Of a DNA stretch of 37,935 nucleotides, positions 2,923-36,672 are shown piece by piece. Positions within the stretch are counted from its first letter, which is position 1. Each line of letters opens with the position of its first letter. A program made the translations under genes and the position numbers. Source of the DNA: a virus (taxonomy: Duplodnaviria > Heunggongvirae > Uroviricota > Caudoviricetes); the IMG/VR virus record IMGVR_UViG_2909298281_000006, positions 1 through 37,935 of that record; one strand, written 5' to 3'. The notes beneath the pieces were generated by a model that saw only the letters and a program-made list of their open reading frames with translations, was not told where the DNA came from and made no database searches.

Positions 2923-3333
2923 ATGAACGCAAAAGAAGAAGGTATTATCAGAGCACTGAAAGAAATTTCAAAGACAGAAAACGAAGTAGCGAAAAAAGCC
3001 GTGGCAAATGCACATATGGACGTCGCAATCCACACACTGATAGTCGCAAGAGTCACGGCAGAAGCAGCCGAAATTATCGCAAAACAGGATGCTGAACTGG
3101 TGGTTCTCAGAACACAACCAGTCACCGGACTGGATTTATCTAACACCGGACGCCTTATTTACACAATTGGCTCGGAGCTACAGCGATACACCATTATCGC
3201 CGGATTACAGGATAAATACCTGATCACTCCGCACCCCATAAGGGAGTCAGAGATTCTGACAAATCTCCGCCTGATAGAGCGCTCTCAAGTTGCATTCATT
3301 GATGACGCCCAACACACCGTATTTAACGCATAG
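2923..3333 (+). CDS. Hypothetical early protein (136 aa)
   Basis: ORF with GGAGA SD 8 nt upstream of the ATG. Confidence 0.55.
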   Translation: MNAKEEGIIRALKEISKTENEVAKKAVANAHMDVAIHTLIVARVTAEAAEIIAKQDAELVVLRTQPVTGLDLSNTGRLIYTIGSELQRYTIIAGLQDKYLITPHPIRESEILTNLRLIERSQVAFIDDAQHTVFNA

Positions 3334-3356
3334 GGTTACTGGACAAAGGGGGCGCA

Positions 3357-3560
3357 ATGGCAATTAAGCGTTTTTCCGTCATTCGTTTCACCTCCAGAGG
3401 GCGTGAATACGAAGTTGACGAACGGCTGATTAAAACGCTCGACCGTCACCGTTCGCAACCTGACGCGCATCACATTTATCTCACTGACGACACTTACTTC
3501 TGCGCCACCAACGTGGTGCAGGTGAATCTTATCAGACTGGTACAGGAGCCACGCAGATGA
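3357..3560 (+). CDS. Hypothetical protein (67 aa)
   Basis: ORF with AGGGGG SD; stop overlaps the next start. Confidence 0.5.
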   Translation: MAIKRFSVIRFTSRGREYEVDERLIKTLDRHRSQPDAHHIYLTDDTYFCATNVVQVNLIRLVQEPRR

Positions 3561-3823
3561 CCATTCTGGACTACATCGCTACTCATCCGGGGTGTAGCGG
3601 CGGAGAGATCGCCGCAGCACTGAATACTCCAACCACAGCCATTAATGCTGAGTTACGCCAACTTTGGCGCGGCGGCTTAGTCATCAGAACAAACCGCAGC
3701 ACAGGTGGTCGCGCTCGCAAAACAGGAGGCCAGGCTTCTTACCACGTAAACCCGATGCCGTTCGGGTGTAGCAATCCACTTACTCACATGTTTAACCAGC
3801 TACTGAAGGAAGCCAGAGCATGA
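3557..3823 (+). CDS. Putative winged-helix DNA-binding protein (88 aa)
   Basis: ILDYIATHPGCSGGEIAAALNTPTTAINAELRQL resembles wHTH regulators; overlapping stop/start coupling with neighbours. Confidence 0.5.
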   Translation: MTILDYIATHPGCSGGEIAAALNTPTTAINAELRQLWRGGLVIRTNRSTGGRARKTGGQASYHVNPMPFGCSNPLTHMFNQLLKEARA

Positions 3824-4119
3824 GCACCATCAACCACCAGAAGCTACGCGAACTGGCATTTGCCCTGCAACGAATGGCAACGCCTCAAAAATTACTGGCA
3901 TTTCGCGCAATGCTCTCGCCGTCTGCTGTGCTGGCACTGCTGAATGAGCTGGAGCACGCCAGAACCACAGCTCCTGCCATTCGCCTGACACTCCATCATG
4001 AAATCGCTGATTTCTGCGCACCACTGGGTTCGCCCGGTGAACCAGAAACGCCGGAAGCAATGCAACGAGAGCTACTGCAACGCATCGACAAGGTTTTTGA
4101 TTTTTTCCTTAACCAGTAA
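3820..4119 (+). CDS. Hypothetical protein (99 aa)
   Basis: ORF translationally coupled to the upstream gene. Confidence 0.5.
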   Translation: MSTINHQKLRELAFALQRMATPQKLLAFRAMLSPSAVLALLNELEHARTTAPAIRLTLHHEIADFCAPLGSPGEPETPEAMQRELLQRIDKVFDFFLNQ

Positions 4120-4130
4120 AGGACCGCGAT

Positions 4131-4223
4131 ATGAACAAAAAGACCTGGTTTCGCGCATACATGTGGGCGCTGGTATGCGTCCTCATCTCTATCATTCTGT
4201 ATGCAGGACTGCTCCCCGAATGA
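4131..4223 (+). CDS. Tiny hydrophobic protein (30 aa)
   Basis: ATG 4131 after AAGGA; MNKKTWFRAYMWALVCVLISIILYAGLLPE, single TM. Confidence 0.3.
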   Translation: MNKKTWFRAYMWALVCVLISIILYAGLLPE

Positions 4224-4333
4224 TCTCATCAGACAGCTCCTTCCTGGTATTGCTGGGCATTTTCATTGCCATGCTGTACCCGGCAGGCGTTGTTCGCCTT
4301 TTCAGTAAGTACATCAAGGAAATCAAACAATGA
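4220..4333 (+). CDS. Tiny hydrophobic protein (37 aa)
   Basis: ATG 4220 overlaps the upstream stop; MISSDSSFLVLLGIFIAMLYPAGVVRLF; stop overlaps the SPFH gene start (ATGA). Confidence 0.35.
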   Translation: MISSDSSFLVLLGIFIAMLYPAGVVRLFSKYIKEIKQ

Positions 4334-5160
4334 AGAAATTCAAACTCTTTCAGATTCTCCCGCTTTTTGCCGCCATCCTGCTGGTTGGCTGCGATCGCGT
4401 TGAGCCAGGTAATGTGGGCATTAAAGTCAACAAACTGGGCGACGATAAAGGCGTCGGTGAAGTGGTTGGCGTTGGCCGCTACTGGACAGGCTGGAATACC
4501 GAGGTTTACATCTTCCCGACCTTCAAACAAATGAAGACCTACGATGAGCCGTTCAGCTTTCAGATGAGTGACGGCACAACCATCGGCTATCACATCGGTG
4601 TGGCCTACAAGGTTGATCCATCCAAAGTTACCACAGTGTTTCAGACCTACCGCAAAGGCGTGGATGACATTACCGACACTGACCTGCGCCAGAAGATCGC
4701 CGATGCACTCAACCGACTGGCCAGCAAAATGACCACCGATAAGTTTATCGACGGTGGCAAGTCTGAACTGCTGGATTCAGCACTTAAAGATATTCAGGAA
4801 GAGATGACCCCCATCGGTATTCAGGTCATGAGCCTCTCCTATGTCGGTAAACCGGAATATCCGCCAACCGTTATCGACAGCATTAATGCCAAAGTCACGG
4901 CAAACCAGAAAACCCTGCAACGCGAGCAGGAAGTCAAGCAACGCGAAGCAGAAGCCAACATGTTGCGCGCAGAAGCTGCCGGACAGGCTGATGCCATTCG
5001 CACAAAAGCCCAGGCTGAAGCCGACGCCATTCGTTTACGCGGTGAAGCTCTGCGCCAGAATCCCGGCGTTATGGAGCTGGAAGCGATTAACAAATGGAAC
5101 GGCACGCTGCCGCAATACATGACCAGCAATACCGCTGTTCCGTTCGTTCCCGTGAAGTAA
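4330..5160 (+). CDS. SPFH/band-7 (HflC/stomatin-like) lipoprotein
   Basis: 276 aa; signal peptide with lipobox LLVGC; SPFH-like core (GNVGIKVNKLG...YIFPTF...VAYKVDP) and Ala/Glu-rich C-terminal coiled-coil tail (REAEANMLRAEAAGQADAIRTKAQAEADAIRLRGEA). Confidence 0.75.
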   Translation: MKKFKLFQILPLFAAILLVGCDRVEPGNVGIKVNKLGDDKGVGEVVGVGRYWTGWNTEVYIFPTFKQMKTYDEPFSFQMSDGTTIGYHIGVAYKVDPSKVTTVFQTYRKGVDDITDTDLRQKIADALNRLASKMTTDKFIDGGKSELLDSALKDIQEEMTPIGIQVMSLSYVGKPEYPPTVIDSINAKVTANQKTLQREQEVKQREAEANMLRAEAAGQADAIRTKAQAEADAIRLRGEALRQNPGVMELEAINKWNGTLPQYMTSNTAVPFVPVK

Positions 5161-5166
5161 TTAAAT

Positions 5167-5210
5167 CCGGCCAGTGAAAACCGCTGGCCGGAGCAGTATC
5201 AGGATTTTTT
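5167..5210 (+). terminator. Putative rho-independent terminator after the SPFH gene
   Basis: Hairpin CCGGCCAG-(9 nt)-CTGGCCGG at 5167-5191, T-run at 5205-5210. Confidence 0.45.
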
Positions 5211-5327
5211 AGTATGCCGTTCTCACAAAAAAACCGCTTGCCATGCCGCAATCAGTCAGGTTACATTTCCGCTGCACCTCACAAAACGGGTGCCGGGTTT
5301 CGCAGCCTGCTGACTACACAAGCGCAC

Positions 5328-5348
5328 AACCGCGCCAGCGGTTTTTTT
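5328..5348 (+). terminator. Putative rho-independent terminator
   Basis: AACCGC-GCCA-GCGGTT hairpin immediately followed by TTTTT. Confidence 0.5.
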
Positions 5349-5527
5349 GTGCGTACTGTATTGCCACGTTTTTTTCGCATCAGAATTATGGCGGGGCGTA
5401 CGGGGCCGACTTCGGTCGGGCCGGGTTCTTGTGTAGCCGGTACTGCGAACCTCGTACGTCTCGCCACCCACAGTTTCGCAGCTCTGGATGGTGAGTTTTC
5501 ACAACTTACTACACAAGGGGCCACACC

Positions 5528-5758
5528 ATGGCAAACCGCAAACCACACCGCGCTATCGCGGAGCGTCGTCACATCCAGACTGAAATCAACCGCAGGCTTT
5601 CCCGCGCATCACGCGTCGCGCAAATCATGCACATCAATATGTTGCATGAGCGCAGCCACGCACTATCAAACATTTATTCCGCCTCTGTTTTCAGCTATCT
5701 GGCGGATGATCTGCACGAGCTTCAACAGCTCATCCAGCAGCAAAACAAACTCCATTAA
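5528..5758 (+). CDS. Hypothetical protein (76 aa)
   Basis: ORF with AAGGGG about 9 nt upstream; no recognisable motif. Confidence 0.4.
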   Translation: MANRKPHRAIAERRHIQTEINRRLSRASRVAQIMHINMLHERSHALSNIYSASVFSYLADDLHELQQLIQQQNKLH

Positions 5759-5830
5759 TTCCTGTTCCGGGCCTTTCCTGCACCTTGCGGCGGGAGGCCT
5801 TCGCACATCTGTAACAAGAGGATTGCCGCA

Positions 5831-6196
5831 ATGATTCTCGCCAACGACTTTCTTGAATACCTGCTCAACACAGAGCGTGATCTTGCCGCTCGCGTGCGTG
5901 ATCGTTATGACATGTACCTGAAATCCCTGCCTGTACCACAGCTCGCTGACGGAAAGATTGTTATTGATGGTCGCTACATGATTGACAGCCACGAGGGAAA
6001 TTACAGGCTTTACCGCATTGAAGGTGGCACCCCGTCCGTTATTGGCATTTACCAGCGCCCATCCTCTGCAATCGTCGATGTGATTGCCGACAGCATCCGC
6101 ATCACACATCGCCATGCCGACACAGAAGACACCGTGCTGGAAATTCAGCGGCTGGCTACAGTCTGCCGCGACACCCTGAATGGCATGACGAAGTAA
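5831..6196 (+). CDS. Hypothetical protein (121 aa) immediately upstream of A
   Basis: AGAGGA SD; sits in the operon position just before replication gene A. Confidence 0.55.
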   Translation: MILANDFLEYLLNTERDLAARVRDRYDMYLKSLPVPQLADGKIVIDGRYMIDSHEGNYRLYRIEGGTPSVIGIYQRPSSAIVDVIADSIRITHRHADTEDTVLEIQRLATVCRDTLNGMTK

Positions 6197-6202
6197 ATCA
6201 CT

Positions 6203-8350
6203 ATGACGGCAGAGTACATCAGGGACTGGCAACAACCGCGCCACGCAGTGGGGCGTGAAGGAACGGGGATCCCCGCTCCTGAATCCGCGCTTTCCTCCTG
6301 GCTGGATGCCTACCGGGCAGAGAACGAGCGCCGCCAGGAAATGGCTGATGCGGCGTTCTCCGCCACGCCGCTGGGCAACCTGATTAATAAAAGCCTGGAC
6401 GCACAGGAAAAACAGGACAAAACCATCACACTGGCAGGAGACGCCAGAAAGCAGGCACGCGGCGCGGTGGATGAAGCCATGGCCTCGCTGCGCCTGCTGC
6501 CGTCCTATCTGCGCGATCCGCTTATTCGCCACCTCTCCTTCCTGCGCAAAAAACAGGAATCTGACCGCCAGAAAGGTAAAAAGAACCAGCAGGCTGAACG
6601 CTACGCGCGCGGGACCCTGCGCAAAATATTCGAACGTCTGGACCGCACCGACCACCGCTGGCTGACACCGGGTTATCGCGCCCTTGCCGGACGCGAACGC
6701 CTGGATGATTTGCTTTACCTCCCGCAGCTCAACAAGCACCAGATACAGACGCTGGCCACCATGACGGCGGCGATGTTCAGCAGCACCTTCGAAAAACTCT
6801 GCGATGGCTTTGGCGCAACCGATGGCGAGCTGACCATGGATGTAACCCTGAAGGCGTATCAGATGCTGGCCCGCATGGCGTTACACCTGCACGCCATGCC
6901 TCCACATTATGACGCACTGACAACAGACAAAGACCGGAGGAACGAACCGGACACGGAGCTGCTGCCGGGCGCAATCCTTCGCCTGACCTGTGCGGAATGG
7001 TGGAAACGCAAACTGTGGCTGTTACGTTGCGAGTGGAGAGAAGAACAACTCCGCGCCGCCTGTCTGGTTTCCAGAAAAACATCGCCCTATCTGAGCCAGG
7101 ACGCGTTAAGCGAGTTTCGCGCACAGCGCGAGAAGACACGCGATTTCCTGAAAAGTTTCATGCTGGAAAACGAAGACGGGTTCACGATTGATCTCGAGAC
7201 AGTGTATTACGCGGGAGTAAGTAACCCGGTTCACCGTAAGGCAGAAATGATGGCCACCATGAAGGGACTGGAACTTCTGGCCGAAGCCCGTGGCGACAGA
7301 GCGGTGTTTCTGACTGTCACCTGCCCGTCAAAATACCACGCCACAACAGAGAACGGTCATCCGAATCCCAAATGGAACGGGGCCACCATGCGCGACTCCA
7401 GCGATTACCTGGTTAACACGTTTTTTGCGGCTGTCCGCAAAAAACTGAACCGCGACGGTCTGCGCTGGTATGGCATCCGCACGGTGGAGCCTCACCATGA
7501 CGGCACCGTGCACTGGCATATGATGGTCTTTGCTCATCCGGAAGAAATCGACACCATTGTGTCCCACACCCGCGATATTGCCATTCAGGAAGACCGCCAC
7601 GAGCTGGGCGATGACATAACTCCGCGCTTTAAGGCGGAGTACGTCGACGGCTCAAAAGGCACACCAACCAGCTACATCGCCACCTACATCGGAAAGAACC
7701 TGGACAGCCACGCCGTGGATGGCATCGACCCGAAAACGGGCAAGCCACGCGTTGACCACGAAACCGGAAAATCAATGGCCGAGAGCGTGGAGCGCGCCAT
7801 CGGCTGGGCGCGCCTTCACCGGGTCCGCCAGTTCCAGTTCTTTGGCATCCCCTCCCGTCAGGTGTGGCGTGAACTGCGCCGCCTTGCCAGCCAGATGGCA
7901 CGCAACCCGGAAGGCCCGCAACGACTGAAGGACGACGCAATGGATGCGGTACTCGCTGCCGCTGATGCCGGGTGTTTTGCCTCCTACATTGAAAAACAGG
8001 GTGGCGTACTTGTTCCACGCAAAGACTACCTGATTCGCACCGCCTACGACCTCGCCGATGAGCTGAACGATTACGGCGAACAGAGCGTACAGATTTACGG
8101 GATCTGGTCACCACTCATCGGGGAATCCTCCCGTGTGTGCACGCATCCGGATAACTGGAAGCTGGTAAGACGTAAACCGGAAGCGGAAGACAGCGCCCGC
8201 GAAAATGGTTTTGACCTTCAGGGCGGCCCTGCCGCCCTTGGACTCGTGGCAATAACTGTCCCCGTGTACAGGAAACGGACAACAACGGGACAGAACAGCC
8301 GGAGGAACGGCCAGCACCGTGGCCGCAGCTTCCTGAAGGCGTTGACGTGA
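6203..8350 (+). CDS. A: Replication initiator A (rolling-circle initiator/endonuclease)
   Basis: 715 aa, matching the size and position of P2 gpA; contains a Tyr-containing YIATYIGKNLD motif consistent with rolling-circle initiator active sites. Confidence 0.85.
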   Translation: MTAEYIRDWQQPRHAVGREGTGIPAPESALSSWLDAYRAENERRQEMADAAFSATPLGNLINKSLDAQEKQDKTITLAGDARKQARGAVDEAMASLRLLPSYLRDPLIRHLSFLRKKQESDRQKGKKNQQAERYARGTLRKIFERLDRTDHRWLTPGYRALAGRERLDDLLYLPQLNKHQIQTLATMTAAMFSSTFEKLCDGFGATDGELTMDVTLKAYQMLARMALHLHAMPPHYDALTTDKDRRNEPDTELLPGAILRLTCAEWWKRKLWLLRCEWREEQLRAACLVSRKTSPYLSQDALSEFRAQREKTRDFLKSFMLENEDGFTIDLETVYYAGVSNPVHRKAEMMATMKGLELLAEARGDRAVFLTVTCPSKYHATTENGHPNPKWNGATMRDSSDYLVNTFFAAVRKKLNRDGLRWYGIRTVEPHHDGTVHWHMMVFAHPEEIDTIVSHTRDIAIQEDRHELGDDITPRFKAEYVDGSKGTPTSYIATYIGKNLDSHAVDGIDPKTGKPRVDHETGKSMAESVERAIGWARLHRVRQFQFFGIPSRQVWRELRRLASQMARNPEGPQRLKDDAMDAVLAAADAGCFASYIEKQGGVLVPRKDYLIRTAYDLADELNDYGEQSVQIYGIWSPLIGESSRVCTHPDNWKLVRRKPEAEDSARENGFDLQGGPAALGLVAITVPVYRKRTTTGQNSRRNGQHRGRSFLKALT

Positions 8351-8949
8351 ATGAATGGATGCGCTCACTGAAACGGCACGAACGCCGGGCACTGATGCGT
8401 TCGCTGCGTGACAAACAGGCAAAAAACAGCAGTGATGAAATGCAGAACTGGACACAGAGCCGCAAACAGCCACAGCCTTTGCCTGATAACCACGAGTTAC
8501 TCGCTAAAGAATGGCGGGAGTCTGCTGAATCTCTCGGCCTGCATATCGGTGAACAGCAGATGCAGCACCTGTTACGGGGCGGCAGTCTGTACGTTGGCGG
8601 CAGCATCATTACACCGCAGGGATTTGAAATTGTACGCAAACCGGATACCCGCCCGGACAGCCGAATCACGCAGCTCTGGCAACGCCTGAGTCGTAATCAC
8701 GGCGTAAGCAGCACGGAGATCCGCCATAACCCGGTCGCCAGCTATCTGGAACAACTAGAGGCATCAGACCCTGAAGCCGCCGCACGCCTGGCATCCACAC
8801 TTCAGCAAGACCAGAACACCATGAAAACACCAGTTACCGTACTTTCTGACATGCTGCGCGCCATCCGCGACGCAGAGCACGCACAGAGAATCAATGAAAC
8901 CACTAAACATGCTCGCAAAAAAATCAGTTTATTGCATCGAACACGATAG
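8347..8949 (+). CDS. Hypothetical protein (200 aa), translationally coupled to A
   Basis: Start overlaps the A stop (ATGA); position of the small post-A ORF in P2. Confidence 0.55.
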   Translation: MNEWMRSLKRHERRALMRSLRDKQAKNSSDEMQNWTQSRKQPQPLPDNHELLAKEWRESAESLGLHIGEQQMQHLLRGGSLYVGGSIITPQGFEIVRKPDTRPDSRITQLWQRLSRNHGVSSTEIRHNPVASYLEQLEASDPEAAARLASTLQQDQNTMKTPVTVLSDMLRAIRDAEHAQRINETTKHARKKISLLHRTR

Positions 8950-8994: not shown

Positions 8995-9804
8995 TCAACC
9001 TATCTTCTTATGAAGTAAAATTAATTTCTGTATTAATTTGGAATGAAACATAGATATATCAGAAATTCTTATTTCATTAGGCGAGTCTATATGATTGGAA
9101 ACTTCTTCCTCCAAGGAGTCACAAATACTTTCTAGATTTTCAATATCTGCATTTAATTCTGGAAAACTATTAAACAAATATAATGAATCCCGTAACTCTC
9201 CTAGTTTTGGTAAAAGAGTATTACTGAATACACTAAGAAACTCCTCTTCTGATAATGCCATGGAGTTTTTAAAACTTTGCACAACATCGAATGCCAACCC
9301 ATTAATTTTAGGCATAATTACTTCTCTTACCCAATATCCTTCATTAATAGCTTCTTTACGTTCTTTTCTATGTTGAACATAAGGAATAACAAAGGATGAA
9401 ACTAAGGCAAATAAAGAGATGCCAATAGAAATCCACTCTGGACCATTTTCCGGAACCTTTACAATATTATATATATCATGGGAATTTGGAACATCTTTGA
9501 AATAATTAGCAAATAAATCTTTTTTGTTATCCCTTGCCAGAGATAACTTATGAAAGGTGTCGTTTGCCTTTTCACAAAACATCAAGCCATCATTCGGGTT
9601 TCCGGATAACAAAAACGGTGATGATATACCACTAAGTCCTGAATCGGAAATATAAAAAGGCGTGTTTGGATAAAGTGACTCATTACATTCAATGTTTTCT
9701 TTATTGGAAAAATCTGTCACAGAGCAAGCTGCGGGGAATATAAAAAAAATGACAGACAGCGCTGTCATTTTGATTTGAAAAATATTTTTAAAAGAAGGGA
9801 ACAT
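8995..9804 (-). CDS. Cargo gene 3: bitopic membrane protein (N-terminal signal/anchor plus one central TM), candidate effector
   Basis: 269 aa; hydrophobic N-terminus MTALSVIFFIFPAACS, central TM WISIGISLFALVSSFVIPYV, acidic C-terminal domain; AGGAGAGG upstream; start overlaps the upstream gene by 17 nt; AT-rich. Confidence 0.7.
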   Translation of the reverse strand: MFPSFKNIFQIKMTALSVIFFIFPAACSVTDFSNKENIECNESLYPNTPFYISDSGLSGISSPFLLSGNPNDGLMFCEKANDTFHKLSLARDNKKDLFANYFKDVPNSHDIYNIVKVPENGPEWISIGISLFALVSSFVIPYVQHRKERKEAINEGYWVREVIMPKINGLAFDVVQSFKNSMALSEEEFLSVFSNTLLPKLGELRDSLYLFNSFPELNADIENLESICDSLEEEVSNHIDSPNEIRISDISMFHSKLIQKLILLHKKIG

Positions 9805-10132
9805 TTTTATGTAAGCCTCTCCTTACAGCTCTATCTAATTCAGAAAGCATACCTTCTTTATATTCACGACCATCAAGTACAGTGCGACTATAAAATTCGC
9901 TAGGCGAAGAAAATTTCGGCAAAACCGTTTCAAGCATACCTAGAAAGTATGAGCTTGATACAACAATTCCCTTGGGGATCAATAGATATAATCTATCATT
10001 ACTGGTTGTGCAAAATTTCCCTATATTAAAGTAATCATAGGCCTGGCGCCCATTAGAACGTCCAGCAAAAAGTTTCTTGTTACTATCTTTTACTAACTTA
10101 TTGAAATCTATGGTGATGTCAGCCATTTTCAT
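9788..10132 (-). CDS. Cargo gene 2: small STAS-like / anti-sigma-factor-antagonist-like protein (tentative)
   Basis: 114 aa; ITIDFNKLVKDS and GIVVSSSYFLGML resemble the STAS/SpoIIAA DSSG region (from memory); 10-nt gap to the upstream GHKL gene stop. Confidence 0.6.
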   Translation of the reverse strand: MKMADITIDFNKLVKDSNKKLFAGRSNGRQAYDYFNIGKFCTTSNDRLYLLIPKGIVVSSSYFLGMLETVLPKFSSPSEFYSRTVLDGREYKEGMLSELDRAVRRGLHKNVPFF

Positions 10133-10142
10133 GTACCTGTCC

Positions 10143-11522
10143 TCAAGTTCGCTGGGTGGCGTTTTCTGGTAGAGGAAAACGAATATTGATCATAACTCCA
10201 GGAAATCGAGCATCCTTCATACGCTTAAGATAGTTGCGATCCGGTTCAGATTCAAGCCCTACATCATTAAAAGGGTAAGTAAAAATGTCACTTTCCTCGT
10301 CATTAACCAACCTTTGCTTTAATTTATATGATCCATCAAAGTTAATATGAGTACTACCAGATATTAAAGTCATTTTTATCCCACCTTTAATATCTCTTCC
10401 CATTTTTTTAAGATTATCATGCATATCTTGAAATAACTTCAATAATTCAATTGTTCCGGTGCCAGAACTGTCAGTTTCTTTCTCGTTTTTACAACTCACC
10501 CGCCCTTGCAAGGCCGCTACTGTTGTTAATCCTTCCTTAAACATACCCTTTTTCTTAATATGCTTATTTATGTATGGATTAACTTGTTGACTTAATGAAA
10601 AATGATCCTCAGGTAAATTATCAAAAGTTTCGCTGATAGTTTTCCCAAAATTGAAAACAGCCAACTCACATATGGGGTTTCGTACGTTATTATTAACAAA
10701 ACCTCTCAAATACCAGCGTGGGCGTTGCTCTAACCCACAATGCCGCTCCGCATTATCAAGGAGTTCCCCCATGCAGGAAGTTAAATGCTTTTCTGCCTCA
10801 TGTACAAGTTTTAAATTATGATCATTTAAGCATTCGTTTATGTATGCGGTAAATTTTTCAGCAGTGACATTTTTTCTGTCATGGGCAAAGGCAGAAGCAT
10901 TCTCCTTTCCGATACTATCAGCAGAGAAGATTCGTTTCTTCGGATTCGCTTTTTTCGATGCTTCAGTAGAGTCCAGAACTTTACCTGGTGCAGCATTACT
11001 AATCTCTTTTACAAGCCCGACATCCCTGATAATTTCAAGATACTGTTCATCTTTAGGGTAGATACCATTAATCTGAATCATCGTATCTTTGAAATTTATA
11101 TTACTTTGCCTTGCTGCTGTAAGAGCAACACCTAATAGACACTCAAGACCAAGACAGTGTTTTTTGTTTTTCTTGTAATCAAAAATATATGATTTCCATT
11201 TACCTCTTGCAATTAATTTTGTGGCTGCACTAATAAATAGCAGAGATTTCTCTGGATTGTCATATAAGTCAAAATATTTAGGTATTAATATCTTCTCTGC
11301 GTCACGACGAAGAATTGATGAGTCATACTCTTTTATAATCGATATATTTTCAATGAACGTAGCGACTTGGTTTTGGACAGGAGTTGTTTCATCGGAAAAA
11401 CGAAGACTACCATTTTTCTCTTGCGCAGGCTTTTTTTTCTTAGCTCTCTCAACGCTACGAAGAAATCGCAACCATCCACGTAAAAAGGTTCTTTTAGAAT
11501 CTTCTTTATTGATTTTTTTCAT
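10143..11522 (-). CDS. Cargo gene 1: GHKL-superfamily ATPase / putative protein kinase
   Basis: Track ORF runs to TTG 11618; ATG at 11522 (MKKINKED) preferred. N-box-like ELLDNAERH and G2-like SSGTGTIELL; the N-terminal ~230 aa have no motif I recognise. Confidence 0.65.
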   Translation of the reverse strand: MKKINKEDSKRTFLRGWLRFLRSVERAKKKKPAQEKNGSLRFSDETTPVQNQVATFIENISIIKEYDSSILRRDAEKILIPKYFDLYDNPEKSLLFISAATKLIARGKWKSYIFDYKKNKKHCLGLECLLGVALTAARQSNINFKDTMIQINGIYPKDEQYLEIIRDVGLVKEISNAAPGKVLDSTEASKKANPKKRIFSADSIGKENASAFAHDRKNVTAEKFTAYINECLNDHNLKLVHEAEKHLTSCMGELLDNAERHCGLEQRPRWYLRGFVNNNVRNPICELAVFNFGKTISETFDNLPEDHFSLSQQVNPYINKHIKKKGMFKEGLTTVAALQGRVSCKNEKETDSSGTGTIELLKLFQDMHDNLKKMGRDIKGGIKMTLISGSTHINFDGSYKLKQRLVNDEESDIFTYPFNDVGLESEPDRNYLKRMKDARFPGVMINIRFPLPENATQRT

Positions 11523-11601
11523 TTCCAAATGTTCCTGCAAAGTTAACGTAGCCCACAAGGCGCTAAGTATACTTTCTGCTATATTTTTTTCACTATACAA
11601 A

Positions 11602-11628
11602 TGCACAATAGTGCACAAATTTGCACAA
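11602..11628. repeat. Three direct TGCACAA repeats with exact 10-bp phasing upstream of the cargo operon (fourth copy at 11694-11700)
   Basis: Read directly: TGCACAA at 11602-11608, 11612-11618, 11622-11628. Confidence 0.6.
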
Positions 11629-25811: not shown

Positions 25812-26410
25812 TGGCATTCAGAATGAGTGAACAACCACGAACCATAAAAATTTATAATCTGCTGGCCGGAACCAATGAATTTATTGGTGAAGGTGATACA
25901 TACATTCCACCTCATACAGGTCTACCTGCAAATAGTACTGATATTGCTCCGCCAGATATTCCAGCTGGCTTCGTGGCTATTTTCAACAGTGATGAGGCGT
26001 CCTGGCATCTCGTTGAAGATCATCGTGGTAAAACGGTTTATGACGTGGCTTCCGGCGACGCGTTATTTATTTCTGAACTGGGTCCGTTACCGGAAAATGT
26101 TACCTGGTTGTCGCCGGAAGGGGAATATCAGAAGTGGAACGGCATAGCCTGGGTGAAGGATACGGAAGCAGAAAAACTGTTCCGGAAACGGGAGGCGGAA
26201 GAAACAAAAAACAGCCTCATGCAGGTAGCCAGTGAGCATATTGCGCCGCTTCAGGATGCTGCAGATCTGGAAATTGCAACGGAGGAAGAAATCTCGTTGC
26301 TGGAAGCATGGAAAAAGTATCGGGTATTGCTGAACCGTGTTGATACATCAAGTGCACCGGATATTGAGTGGCCTGCTTCCCCAGTGGAATCAAGGAGTAA
26401 ACAAGCATAA
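25811..26410 (+). CDS. G: Tail fibre assembly chaperone
   Basis: 199 aa immediately after H with ATGA-type overlap; typical tail fibre assembly protein position. Confidence 0.8.
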
Positions 26411-26503
26411 GGCTTTCATTTCAAACCATTGTAGTCCAGTTTTTTGTATAGTACCCTGCTCATTTCGAATGACATGAGTGATTTGGAATTTCAGGGTGCC
26501 ATT

Positions 26504-27682
26504 ATGAATGTTATTTCATCATTAAAACAGCTTAACAGACAGCGAAATATTAAAACAAAAAAGATAAAGACGAAGGCCAGACTGGCATTTCTAAAAATGC
26601 GATACAGAAGGAAAACATCATTACAGCCGGATAGTTATAAAACAGTGTGCATTTTCATGCACATGCAGGCCATTGGTGACGGCATCGTTACCTCAGGGTT
26701 TATTAAACAACTTCAAGAATCCGGCATGGTGGTATATGTGATAGCACCTCCAAGAGTATCATTCCTCTTTACTGATATTGTTGGCGTGGATGCCTTTATT
26801 TCTTACGAGAAAAATAAATTTAACGAACTAAAAGCAAAGATAAAAAAACTGAATGTAGATCTTGTTGTTGACTTCTCAAATTTTGATAACACAGCGATAA
26901 CCAGATTGCAAACACTACATTTACTTAAACCTAAACACTCTATCTGTTTTAATCATCCTGCCGTAACTATTTTTGATACAAATATAATCGATAATCGTTC
27001 CATTCACTCATCTGAAAGAATGAAAAAAGTTTTATCTTTACTAAAGATAAAAAATAATGATTACGCTGCAGCGCTTAATTTTGACAACAAAATATATGAA
27101 CCAGCAAATATTGTTGCAAATGAATTCAGGAAGAAAAACAAAAAATTAGTTATATTTAACCCTTATGGCTCTCAGAATAGCAGAACCTTGTCTGATGAAC
27201 AGATAAACAAAGTACTAGCTTACCTTAACAACCTTAAGGGATATCACACAATAGTTTTTAACATGGGAAAACAGATTAATCACAATGGATTGGATAATGT
27301 GTCTCTATCTCCATTTTCTGATGCAGGATGTTCATTTGCATTGGTTCGCCATGCTGATTTTGTTATAACTGTAGATACTGCTATTGTACATTTAGCCAGT
27401 GCATTAAACATTAGACAATACTGTATATATAATAACAGAATGCATGAAGGAAAATTCGAAAATAATATAGTGTGGGGGCCAAACAGCAAATTAGCGACTC
27501 AACTCACCACATCCGAACATCTAAGGTCTGAAGGGGGCGACGATATGCATAAATTCGACATAATGCTTTTAATTAATGCTATCAAACAAGATTTGACAAA
27601 CGATATACCGAATTACCACTCGGATTTAGGTTGTAAAAATAGCTCCAGAAACCCAGAATTAGAAAGTAGCAAATCTTTATAA
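26504..27682 (+). CDS. Glycosyltransferase family 9-like (heptosyltransferase-like) cargo gene
   Basis: Track ORF starts at TTG 26444; ATG 26504 preferred. AIGDGIVTSGFIKQL and VDTAIVHLASALN resemble GT9 N- and C-terminal motifs (WaaC/WaaF-like D-S-G-x-x-HLAAAL); AT-rich. Confidence 0.65.
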   Translation: MNVISSLKQLNRQRNIKTKKIKTKARLAFLKMRYRRKTSLQPDSYKTVCIFMHMQAIGDGIVTSGFIKQLQESGMVVYVIAPPRVSFLFTDIVGVDAFISYEKNKFNELKAKIKKLNVDLVVDFSNFDNTAITRLQTLHLLKPKHSICFNHPAVTIFDTNIIDNRSIHSSERMKKVLSLLKIKNNDYAAALNFDNKIYEPANIVANEFRKKNKKLVIFNPYGSQNSRTLSDEQINKVLAYLNNLKGYHTIVFNMGKQINHNGLDNVSLSPFSDAGCSFALVRHADFVITVDTAIVHLASALNIRQYCIYNNRMHEGKFENNIVWGPNSKLATQLTTSEHLRSEGGDDMHKFDIMLLINAIKQDLTNDIPNYHSDLGCKNSSRNPELESSKSL

Positions 27683-35263: not shown

Positions 35264-35441
35264 AGGAAACCGCGACGGGGAGCAATCCCCCGGTCAATCA
35301 GTTGCCAGAGTAAGGTCGATAAGGCATCCTGTCTCATTCTATACCAGCTAATCAATTGACACATATCAATAAAAAGCCTGATAAAATCAAAATGTTTTGT
35401 TACAAATGTCAGCTAGTAGAGAGCCAAAGGAGGCAGATTAT

Positions 35442-35774
35442 ATGGCATTAATCAAATGTCCTGAATGCCAGAAAGAGGTGATCGATTCAGTATTGTCTTG
35501 CCCTGCTTGTGGCAAACAACTGAAAAAACTTAAACGTTCATTTTTTGGAGAACTCATTAAGTATTTTTTCATATTATTTAATATTTTTATAATCTACACG
35601 ATTTGTGTTGGGCTAAGAGAGGTTGGTGAAATAATAAACAACGCCACATCCGATGCCGAAAAAGCCGGTACAGTTATTGGTACGGGCTTAGGTTTAATTG
35701 CTATTGGAGGCTTATGGGTTATTGGCAATATCATTATCGGAAATTTAGTATTTCTTACTAAACCAAAGGGATAA
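35442..35774 (+). CDS. Zinc-ribbon membrane protein (110 aa)
   Basis: ATG 35442 after AAAGGAGG; CPEC...CPACG zinc ribbon followed by two hydrophobic helices; AT-rich. Confidence 0.55.
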   Translation: MALIKCPECQKEVIDSVLSCPACGKQLKKLKRSFFGELIKYFFILFNIFIIYTICVGLREVGEIINNATSDAEKAGTVIGTGLGLIAIGGLWVIGNIIIGNLVFLTKPKG

Positions 35775-35778
35775 CAAA

Positions 35779-36672
35779 ATGAAAAATATGATTATTTCTA
35801 TAGGTGCATCATTTATATCAATTAGTGTGCTACCTGCTCACGCAGCAACTGAGCATAATAACTTTAAGTCATCACTCCAGTGCCGAGCAATAGAAAATAA
35901 TAAAGAAAGACTTTCTTGTTATGATAAGTCAATACAACCGACTCGAACGACAGTTGCTGAAAAATTCGAAAGCAGAGATCAATGCCCTGATGAGAAAGAT
36001 GATGACAGACGTTTATCTTGTTATGACCGTTTTTTTTCTCCAACATTTACTCCGCCTGTAAGCTCAAAATCTAAATCGAAACAGCTAGTAACAACAGAGG
36101 CTCAGCAACCAAATCTTTCTGAGATATCTAAATGCCGAGCAGAAACCGATAAAGAAACTAGAGTAAACTGCTACGATAAACTATTTCCACAGGAAAAAGT
36201 TGCGCAATCTAAATCAAAATTAGAGAAAGCCACAGACACAGGAAAATGGCACACATCCATTACTACATCGCCAATTGATGATTCGAAAAATGTAATTTTA
36301 TCGTTAGAAAGTGATGATTATATAAGAACTCCATTTGGAGAAGCGGTTACCCCTACTCTGTTTATAGCTTGCCGAGAAAAGAAAACCGAAGTATTTCTTA
36401 ATTGGGATGTATATTTAGGCCTTGAACAAACCAGCATGCTGTATCGCCTTGATAAACAGAAAGCAGTTGAGCGAAACTGGCTAGTATCTACAGATACAAA
36501 GGCTGTTTTTTATAAAGGCAATGACATTAACTTCATCAGAAAACTAGCCAACTCAAACAAAATGTATGCAAAAATAACCCCTTATAATGAAAGCCCTGTA
36601 AGTGCAACTTTCAATTTAAACGGCCTGTCAACCACGCTAAAACCGCTTCAAGAAGCCTGTAACTGGAAATAG
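35779..36672 (+). CDS. Secreted protein with three Cys-containing repeats
   Basis: Signal peptide MKNMIISIGASFISISVLPAHA; three repeats C-x7/8-R-[LV]-x-C-Y-D-[KR] (RLSCYDK, RLSCYDR, RVNCYDK); AT-rich. Confidence 0.6.
   Translation: MKNMIISIGASFISISVLPAHAATEHNNFKSSLQCRAIENNKERLSCYDKSIQPTRTTVAEKFESRDQCPDEKDDDRRLSCYDRFFSPTFTPPVSSKSKSKQLVTTEAQQPNLSEISKCRAETDKETRVNCYDKLFPQEKVAQSKSKLEKATDTGKWHTSITTSPIDDSKNVILSLESDDYIRTPFGEAVTPTLFIACREKKTEVFLNWDVYLGLEQTSMLYRLDKQKAVERNWLVSTDTKAVFYKGNDINFIRKLANSNKMYAKITPYNESPVSATFNLNGLSTTLKPLQEACNWK

Follow-up and report, generated by a model that had tools for sequence, protein, structure and literature searches.

Why should a phage carry an SPFH protein, and carry it among its early lytic genes? 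The question is raised by positions 4131 to 5210 of a 37,935-nucleotide (nt) stretch of Caudoviricetes DNA (IMG/VR record IMGVR_UViG_2909298281_000006, positions 1 to 37,935), which we call the window. A preliminary description had placed here, between cox and gene A, a 276-amino acid (aa) lipoprotein with an SPFH core, preceded by two ATGA-coupled micro-ORFs of 30 and 37 aa and followed by terminators. We find that the locus is a mobile, optional cassette of two membrane-protein genes, lying within the early lytic operon of a P88-like (P2-family) prophage. The cassette is a real, widespread and already annotated accessory unit. A single base is missing from one of its genes, which codes for a small protein with two transmembrane (TM) helices that we call the hairpin protein, and this loss gives the false impression of two tiny ORFs. 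The features of the cassette are as follows.

4120-5213, + strand: optional cassette of 1.1 kb, between the stop codon (4119) of an ead/Ea22-like gene and the ATG (5214) of the conserved downstream block
4131-4333, + strand: hairpin gene, 67 aa, two TM helices (P88 gp11, phrog_1130), frameshifted here; from PHROG and the P88 alignment
4131-4223 and 4220-4333, + strand: hairpin gene fragments of 30 aa and 37 aa respectively; from reading of ORFs
4214-4217, + strand: CCCC run, site of a 1-nt deletion (CCCCC in relatives); from the P88 alignment
4330-5160, + strand: SPFH/Band_7 lipoprotein, 276 aa (P88 gp12, phrog_200); from Pfam, PHROG, AlphaFold2 (AF2) and Foldseek
4330-4395, + strand: signal peptide and lipobox L-V-G-C with Asp at +2 (Cys21 codon 4390-4392, Asp codon 4393-4395); from reading of the sequence
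4396-4956, + strand: SPFH (Band_7) alpha/beta domain, aa 23-209; from the Pfam envelope (23-209) and the AF2 strands and helices
4864-5058, + strand: Ala/Glu-rich helix of 65 residues, aa 179-243, equivalent of the coiled-coil wall in SPFH cages; from the AF2 helix
5166-5192, + strand: GC-rich RNA stem-loop of 11 bp at the 3' end of the cassette; dG about -22 kcal/mol, MFE -23.4 kcal/mol, z = -3.8; no adjacent U tract

An optional cassette in the early operon

The block lies on the + strand between cox and gene A, as first described. In the phages vB_EcoM-705R2, 569R5, P884B11 and Shae_phiSM both flanks are matched and a stretch of about 1.1 kb is missing. With the joined flanks as query, the early region was found in 1281 of 5426 complete E. 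coli genomes, where the site spans 1754 bp when empty and 2841 bp when filled. The P88-type cassette is present in 145 E. coli genomes, of approximately 1281 with this early region. Presence or absence between conserved genes in related phages is the mark of a moron as defined by Hendrix and Juhala, and the locus displays it. The suspicion that this is not a core P2 early gene was therefore correct; the locus is an insertion/deletion cassette missing from most relatives, and comparison of P2-like early regions does not reveal a conserved core gene with a known function.

As a sequence the cassette is already known. Phage P88 carries it at the same position as gp11-gp12. The gp12 protein is identical to the SPFH protein of the window, and gp11 is the intact form of the gene that is split here. 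P88 gp11 is annotated as 'membrane protein', and gp12 as 'lipoprotein' or 'putative SPFH domain protein'.

Only 11 nt separate the cassette from the stop codon of the upstream gene, a gap that would leave no room for a promoter of its own. A crude consensus scan found no sigma-70-like site in 3300-4330, and the two promoter-like sites of the region (5238 and 5361) fit the isrK and C4 RNAs that lie downstream. The cassette is probably transcribed by readthrough from the early promoter, like its neighbours. The terminators said to follow the lipoprotein gene are borne out in part. The stem-loop at 5166-5192 is present, but it lacks a U tract and was not scored as a + strand terminator in a crude scan, and the site that does resemble a canonical terminator, 5328-5343, is that of the isrK RNA. 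Four other ORFs, 4192-4593 (-), 4839-5129 (-), 3998-4333 (+) and 4841-5122 (+), gave no family matches and were treated as spurious.

The SPFH lipoprotein and its hairpin partner

The 276-aa protein is a bona fide member of the SPFH family by profile and by fold. It matches Pfam Band_7 (PF01145) at E=5.7e-31, scoring 108.4 bits where the cut-off is 23.6, over profile positions 2-176 of 176, and the PHROG profile phrog_200 'lipoprotein' with E=1.8e-112. AF2, run with a 99-sequence alignment, gave a model with a mean pLDDT of 90.6, in which the SPFH alpha/beta domain is followed by the 65-residue helix (aa 179-243), a short helix and a tail. The lipobox, SPFH core and Ala/Glu-rich C-terminal stretch first described all stand, in ORF 4330-5160, with a profile match far above the Pfam cut-off and a fold match as well. 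Foldseek comparison of the model with the PDB returned prohibitin, HflK/HflC, erlin, stomatin, flotillin, QmcA and major vault protein, with E from 1e-14 to 1e-7. All of these form cages or rings. The alignments to cage protomers are full length, covering 245-300 columns. Prohibitin, erlin and stomatin are the top matches over the whole protomer (E 1e-14 to 1e-12), and in a ranking by sequence profile prohibitin again comes first (3e-9), with HflC/HflK next (about 1e-6). Prohibitin also faces a compartment topologically equivalent to the periplasm. These three proteins are, however, eukaryotic, with 14-17% identity, and have a hydrophobic or TM anchor where the phage protein would have an acylated N-terminal cysteine.

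The N-terminus of the product, MKKFKLFQILPLFAAILLVG-C-D, comprises a signal peptide and lipobox, with Cys21 followed by Asp22 at the +2 position. MKKFKLFQILPLFAAILLVG-C21 fits the pattern [LVI][ASTVI][GAS]C, read from the sequence rather than taken from a predictor. The lipobox cysteine is invariant in alignment A7. The lipobox is also kept in the homologues of N4, TL, phiE125, phiCbK and crAss phages, and it lies no more than about 12 residues from the SPFH core in approximately 60 of the 82 representatives with a locatable core. Cys21 is therefore likely to be acylated. In enterobacteria an Asp at +2 keeps a lipoprotein on the inner membrane by the Lol-avoidance rule, and from this we infer retention of the SPFH protein at the inner membrane.

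Assignment as an HflK/HflC equivalog (TIGR01933/TIGR01932) was rejected, with scores of 25.7 bits against 134.4 for HflC and 23.5 against 159.4 for HflK. Nor does the locus encode an HflK/C-type pair; it has one SPFH gene, and a lipobox signal peptide replaces the N-terminal TM anchor. In many phage records the SPFH lipoprotein is labeled 'serine protease' or 'putative serine protease' (L003 2947-3774, Stx2, phiP27, phiCbK), and in a few 'transposase'. Both are legacy mislabels that have no support from Pfam or from the fold.

We turn to the upstream partner. The ORFs 4131-4223, 4220-4333 and 4330-5160 are each joined to the next by an ATGA overlap, so the micro-ORFs and overlaps of the preliminary description do exist. 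Yet they are not separate genes. The two fragments both match phrog_1130 (66 positions), the 30-mer at 1-24 and the 37-mer at 26-62, with E-values of 9.4e-6 for the N-terminal and 1.6e-11 for the C-terminal half. In P88, gp11 is one 204-nt gene, ATGA-coupled to gp12. The region aligns with that of P88 at 94% nt identity, and the one difference that matters is CCCCC in P88 against CCCC in the window (4214-4217). The deletion falls inside the most conserved loop motif of the hairpin (LLP/R/MIS). The C5 run is present in 58 of 58 viral-contig loci of P88 type that match the local pattern. An intact two-TM ORF overlaps the SPFH start in every P2-like locus (about 70, fetched via the SPFH protein), and the 67-aa gene is intact on all ten of ten contigs that encode the identical SPFH protein.

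The source of the window is GenBank record CP024252.1; locus L134, from that record, is identical to it over the 9333 nt in common. Comparison of the window with E. coli 67-1, its closest complete relative, reveals exactly three indels over 20.6 kb at 98.1% identity. All three are 1-nt homopolymer deletions, at 4214 (hairpin gene), 8235 (gene A) and 17845 (intergenic). The deletion at 8235, in a C run, breaks the essential replication gene A into ORFs 6203-8350 (715 aa) and 8347-8949 (200 aa), where relatives have a gene of 915-957 aa. A DUF4754 gene near 2479-2583 is also truncated, being called at 34 aa and not 80. From these alignments we conclude that the split of the hairpin gene comes from a mistake in assembly or sequencing, or from very recent decay at a run prone to such errors, and not from the architecture of the locus. 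Either the assembly (CP024252.1) contains homopolymer errors or the prophage is defective.

It is very improbable that the split is functional, with single-helix peptides of 30 and 37 aa made by ATGA re-initiation in a three-gene coupled unit or a phase-variable switch: re-initiation is plausible because the deletion creates a TGA stop that overlaps the in-frame Met31 codon, and C5-to-C4 also occurs on two other, different alleles (L135 and L140) with a different frameshift in L133, but the approximately 70 P2-like loci are all intact, the break lies within the most conserved hairpin motif, the three homopolymer deletions include one that breaks an essential gene, the record CP024252.1 is missing from the RefSeq set of complete genomes, where its sister records are found, and five consecutive C make a short tract by the standards of phase variation. 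A phase-variable C run was judged unlikely on the same grounds of run length, dominance of the intact form and further homopolymer deletions in the window. Most other '37-aa proteins' in the databases are internal starts placed by gene callers on intact genes. In the public assemblies L131, L132 and L136-L139 (5001-5114 in each) the 67-aa gene is intact, yet its annotation starts at Met31 and gives a 37-aa 'putative membrane protein', so that gene calling has masked the complete hairpin gene.

The pairing of the two genes is conserved well beyond P88, with the partner adjacent or fused to the lipoprotein in several phyla. PHROG 200 and PHROG 1130 form an adjacent, coupled pair, with both profiles matched and an ATGA overlap. 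The upstream two-TM partner has 62 aa and is ATGA-coupled in an Stx2 phage, has 78 aa with a 20-nt overlap with the SPFH start in another lambdoid group, and has 66 aa in the P1-like Cyrano and 70 aa in UTI89. In N4 it is the 68-aa gp19, which overlaps gp20, and in a Seunavirus it lies one gene away from the SPFH gene. A scan of genome contigs with a seven-sequence alignment led to Sutterella, Dyella, Luteibacter, Leptospira and Flavobacterium, in whose genomes a hairpin likewise precedes the SPFH gene. About 15 of the best 150 representatives at 50% identity are called as single ORFs in which hairpin, lipobox helix and SPFH domain are fused in frame; AF2 modeled one such natural fusion as three N-terminal helices plus the SPFH domain, with a mean pLDDT of 88.7.

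The hairpins share 11-45% identity with P88 gp11, the UTI89 copy being near-identical. Common to them is the loop between the helices, P-x-[LM]-[ILVM]-S-[SA]-x-[ST], in which Ser33 is invariant and Pro29 nearly so. The C-terminal tail is charged, and the size and layout (about 67 aa, two TM helices) are holin-like. Neither the 67-aa partner nor its fragments matched Pfam or NCBIfam, and phrog_1130 was the only PHROG match. An NfeD or OB-fold domain was sought with Pfam and NCBIfam, as had been proposed at the outset, and there is none; the protein consists of two TM helices only. The coupling of an SPFH gene with that of a small membrane protein recalls the SPFH-NfeD operons (QmcA-YbbJ, YqiJ-YqiK, PH1511-PH1510), and QmcA is a structural neighbor of the cassette protein (8z5g, Foldseek). 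The partner here is different, however, as it lacks the NfeD/OB-fold and is too short to hold one, and the SPFH domains of QmcA and YqiK face the cytoplasm whereas that of the cassette is predicted to be exported.

The sequences are mosaic. Between P2-like and lambdoid phages the mature SPFH part has 87-96% nt identity, while the hairpin gene and signal peptide have approximately 55-65%. In the window the signal-peptide segment (4330-4392; cf. L015, L003 and L076) has 59% nt identity to UTI89, where the hairpin gene has 87% and the mature SPFH part 96%. The signal-peptide segment is replaced independently of its neighbors, which suggests a recombination junction at the gene overlap. The mosaicism fits a scaffold that is conserved while its partner changes fast.

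Stx2-converting phages and other lambdoid phages have the mature SPFH part beside int-xis, at about 92% nt identity, and P1-like phage-plasmids have it at about 76%. The lipoprotein is encoded in 576 of 5426 complete E. coli genomes (about 10%), on chromosomes and plasmids, and the exact SPFH protein on at least 970 contigs. Prophages of pathogenic E. coli, Stx2 phages included, frequently have the cassette. Searching with tblastn gave homologues in 385 phage records, temperate and virulent; the virulent carriers include N4, Vequintavirinae, Bruynoghevirus, phiCbK, crAss-like and Lak phages. The Leptospira pair has succinate dehydrogenase genes as neighbors, and is thus cellular.

Possible roles of the pair

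What might the pair do? The explanation that we favor overall, and to which we give an even chance, is a phage membrane cassette of a hairpin protein and a periplasmic, acylated SPFH cage, for which a function in proofing the envelope is a guess. By the positive-inside rule, with which the fused forms are consistent, both ends of the hairpin protein would be cytoplasmic, and its conserved loop would lie at the periplasmic face, beside the SPFH domain. The SPFH protein would be exported, acylated at Cys21 and kept on the outer leaflet of the inner membrane by Asp +2. To our knowledge every solved full-length SPFH protein forms a cage-type assembly, and by analogy the lipoprotein should oligomerize, by means of its long helix, to form a closed cage facing the periplasm. 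Such a cage would enclose a patch of membrane holding the hairpin partner, early in lytic growth. Our best guess as to the outcome, held with low confidence, is that entry of a superinfecting genome might be blocked, or the inner membrane stabilized until lysis.

The closest parallel in a well-known phage is N4 gp19-gp20, a 68-aa two-TM protein with the loop LLPSMVSALDS whose gene overlaps the start of that of a 278-aa lipobox SPFH protein, itself 61.5% identical to the lipoprotein of the window. N4 differs in being a virulent podovirus, in carrying the pair after its RNAPII genes and in having Tyr, not Asp, after the lipobox Cys; the pair has no annotated function there. Given that strictly virulent phages carry the pair too, a lytic role is likelier than a lysogenic one. 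Most likely, then, the cassette serves lytic development rather than lysogenic conversion or control of the lysis-lysogeny decision. Small early phage proteins of the inner membrane or exposed to the periplasm, such as T4 Imm and Sp, T5 Llp and TP-J34 Ltp, block later phages. They are functional analogues only, and an exclusion activity of the cassette is hypothetical.

A broader proposal, which we regard as possible though doubtful, is that the pair is an ancient two-component membrane module that has been captured repeatedly (by P2-like, lambdoid, P1-like, N4-like, Vequintavirinae and other phages) and represents a new class of exclusion or envelope-proofing system. The module would seal or compartmentalize the inner membrane early in infection, the conserved SPFH cage serving as scaffold and the hairpin, which evolves fast, conferring specificity.

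Several observations weigh against the favored explanation of a hairpin with a periplasmic SPFH cage in lytic growth. Cage formation and binding of the hairpin are proposed by analogy, and the AF2 output for the fusion gives secondary structure and confidence, not contacts between hairpin and SPFH domain. The loci of TL, crAss-like phages and Cytophagales have no recognizable hairpin neighbor while keeping the lipobox. From its housekeeping-gene context in Leptospira, the module is not inherently a phage function. The promoter scan was crude, so the cassette may also be expressed in lysogens, and an HflK/C-like protein of a Pasteurella prophage, likened to ours by description only, is detectable in cultured lysogens (PMC9872710). 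With PADLOC-DB 2.0 the SPFH protein gave no match at E<=0.1, and the hairpin gave 14-16 bits to PDC-M18B, which is at the level of chance. A full-text literature search found no functional study of this SPFH subfamily, only mentions at the level of annotation and the paper on the Pasteurella protein; surveys of T4-like phages list SPFH ORFs without function, and a 2026 paper says of an SPFH lipoprotein in a phage that the reason for its presence 'remains unclear' (PMC13239085).

Among the alternatives, the one that survives best is a device for membrane stress or lysis timing, in which the cage stabilizes the inner membrane or sequesters a hairpin acting as a pore-forming class II holin-like protein, so that lysis is delayed and the burst is larger. 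We consider this unlikely, if less so than those that follow. The partner has the size, two TM helices and charged C-terminal tail of a holin, and the pair is placed with early lytic genes. N4 carries the pair and is known for long lysis-inhibited infections. Yet across Pfam, NCBIfam and PHROG the small protein matches only phrog_1130 'membrane protein', and a complete P2-type lysis cassette is present elsewhere in the window; in the closest relative, holin, endolysin, LysB-like and LysC genes are annotated. There is also no experimental link to lysis.

Less probable again is the idea put forward initially, that the phage protein mimics HflK/C. It would bind or displace the host HflK/C at FtsH and alter the turnover of substrates, thereby tuning the lysis-lysogeny decision or host physiology. 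E. coli HflK and HflC do share the SPFH domain with a long helix. They are the best bacterial neighbors in sequence (in both PDB and NCBIfam) and in structure, with a fold match to their protomers at E about 1e-13, and they face the periplasm, the orientation expected of the phage protein. But HflK/HflC are a hetero-pair with N-terminal TM anchors that modulates FtsH, whereas the cassette has a single SPFH gene, a lipid anchor with no N-terminal TM helix, and scores far under the equivalog cut-offs. Its conserved partner is a 67-aa hairpin and not FtsH. The pair is moreover carried by virulent phages that have no lysogeny decision (N4, Seunavirus), and we know of no CII-like FtsH-dependent switch in P2-type phages.

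We think it quite improbable that the protein is a lysogenic-conversion lipoprotein of the cell surface or of outer-membrane vesicles (OMVs), acting as a virulence or immunomodulatory factor on the animal host. There is a precedent, likened by description only, in Pasteurella multocida PM0222, a prophage HflK/C-like protein of 25-35 kDa that activates TLR1/2 and occurs in OMVs, and whose deletion attenuates virulence (PMC9872710). The frequency of the cassette in pathogenic E. coli prophages, those of Stx2 phages included, would also be in keeping. Against this, Asp +2 predicts retention at the inner membrane in Enterobacterales rather than location in the outer membrane, and the pair is also present in virulent phages and in environmental bacteria (Leptospira, Dyella). 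Its position in the early lytic operon, with no promoter detected in the crude scan, argues against expression in the lysogen.

Neighboring features and significance

Several other features of the window were noted. The region 5214-5834 is a P1/P4-style antisense-RNA and antirepressor module inside the P2-like early operon. It contains an isrK RNA directly downstream of the cassette (5274-5348, 64 bits), preceded by a sigma-70-like site at 5238-5267, then a C4 antisense RNA (5384-5471, 83 bits), preceded by a sigma-70-like site at 5361-5389, and downstream of the C4 RNA a 76-aa ORF of the Derepression family (5528-5758). A 206-aa ORF (5214-5834) overlaps the whole module, with a Pfam Phage_ASH match at aa 17-110. 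Since the Phage_ASH stretch covers both the isrK and C4 genes, calls of an 'ash family protein' may result from the translation of RNA genes.

On the minus strand at 8995-11618, between gene A and the portal gene, three ORFs (269, 114 and 491 aa) run in the same direction. They gave no Pfam or PADLOC match. At the accessory position that P2 uses for tin/old, they are candidate uncharacterized defense or accessory cargo. In the tail-fiber assembly region there is an Rfam IS009 RNA match at 26154-26352 (208 bits), and a 412-aa ORF (26444-27682) has a weak match to glycosyltransferase family 9 (heptosyltransferase), at a place where the closest relative has a serine acetyltransferase; it could be a conversion gene that modifies lipopolysaccharide. 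The integration site of the prophage, like that in E. coli 67-1, lies between pdxB and flk. Past its right end, at 35397-36672, are a zinc-ribbon ORF and a VasI/TagO-type ORF associated with type VI secretion, followed by flk.

For annotation, the analysis corrects the false pair of micro-ORFs, the legacy 'serine protease' label and partner genes started at Met31. What is new is not the copy in the window but the variant architecture, in which an SPFH protein predicted to be periplasmic and anchored by lipid is paired with a conserved hairpin, and its breadth. SPFH proteins are universal membrane scaffolds. The phage lipoprotein subfamily appears always to be exported and anchored by lipid, unlike the TM-anchored cellular paradigms, and it goes together with a two-helix partner, not remarked on before, whose loop has an invariant serine. 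As the tractable phages N4 (gp19-gp20) and P88 carry the pair, what a phage does with an SPFH cage is a question that can be tested directly.

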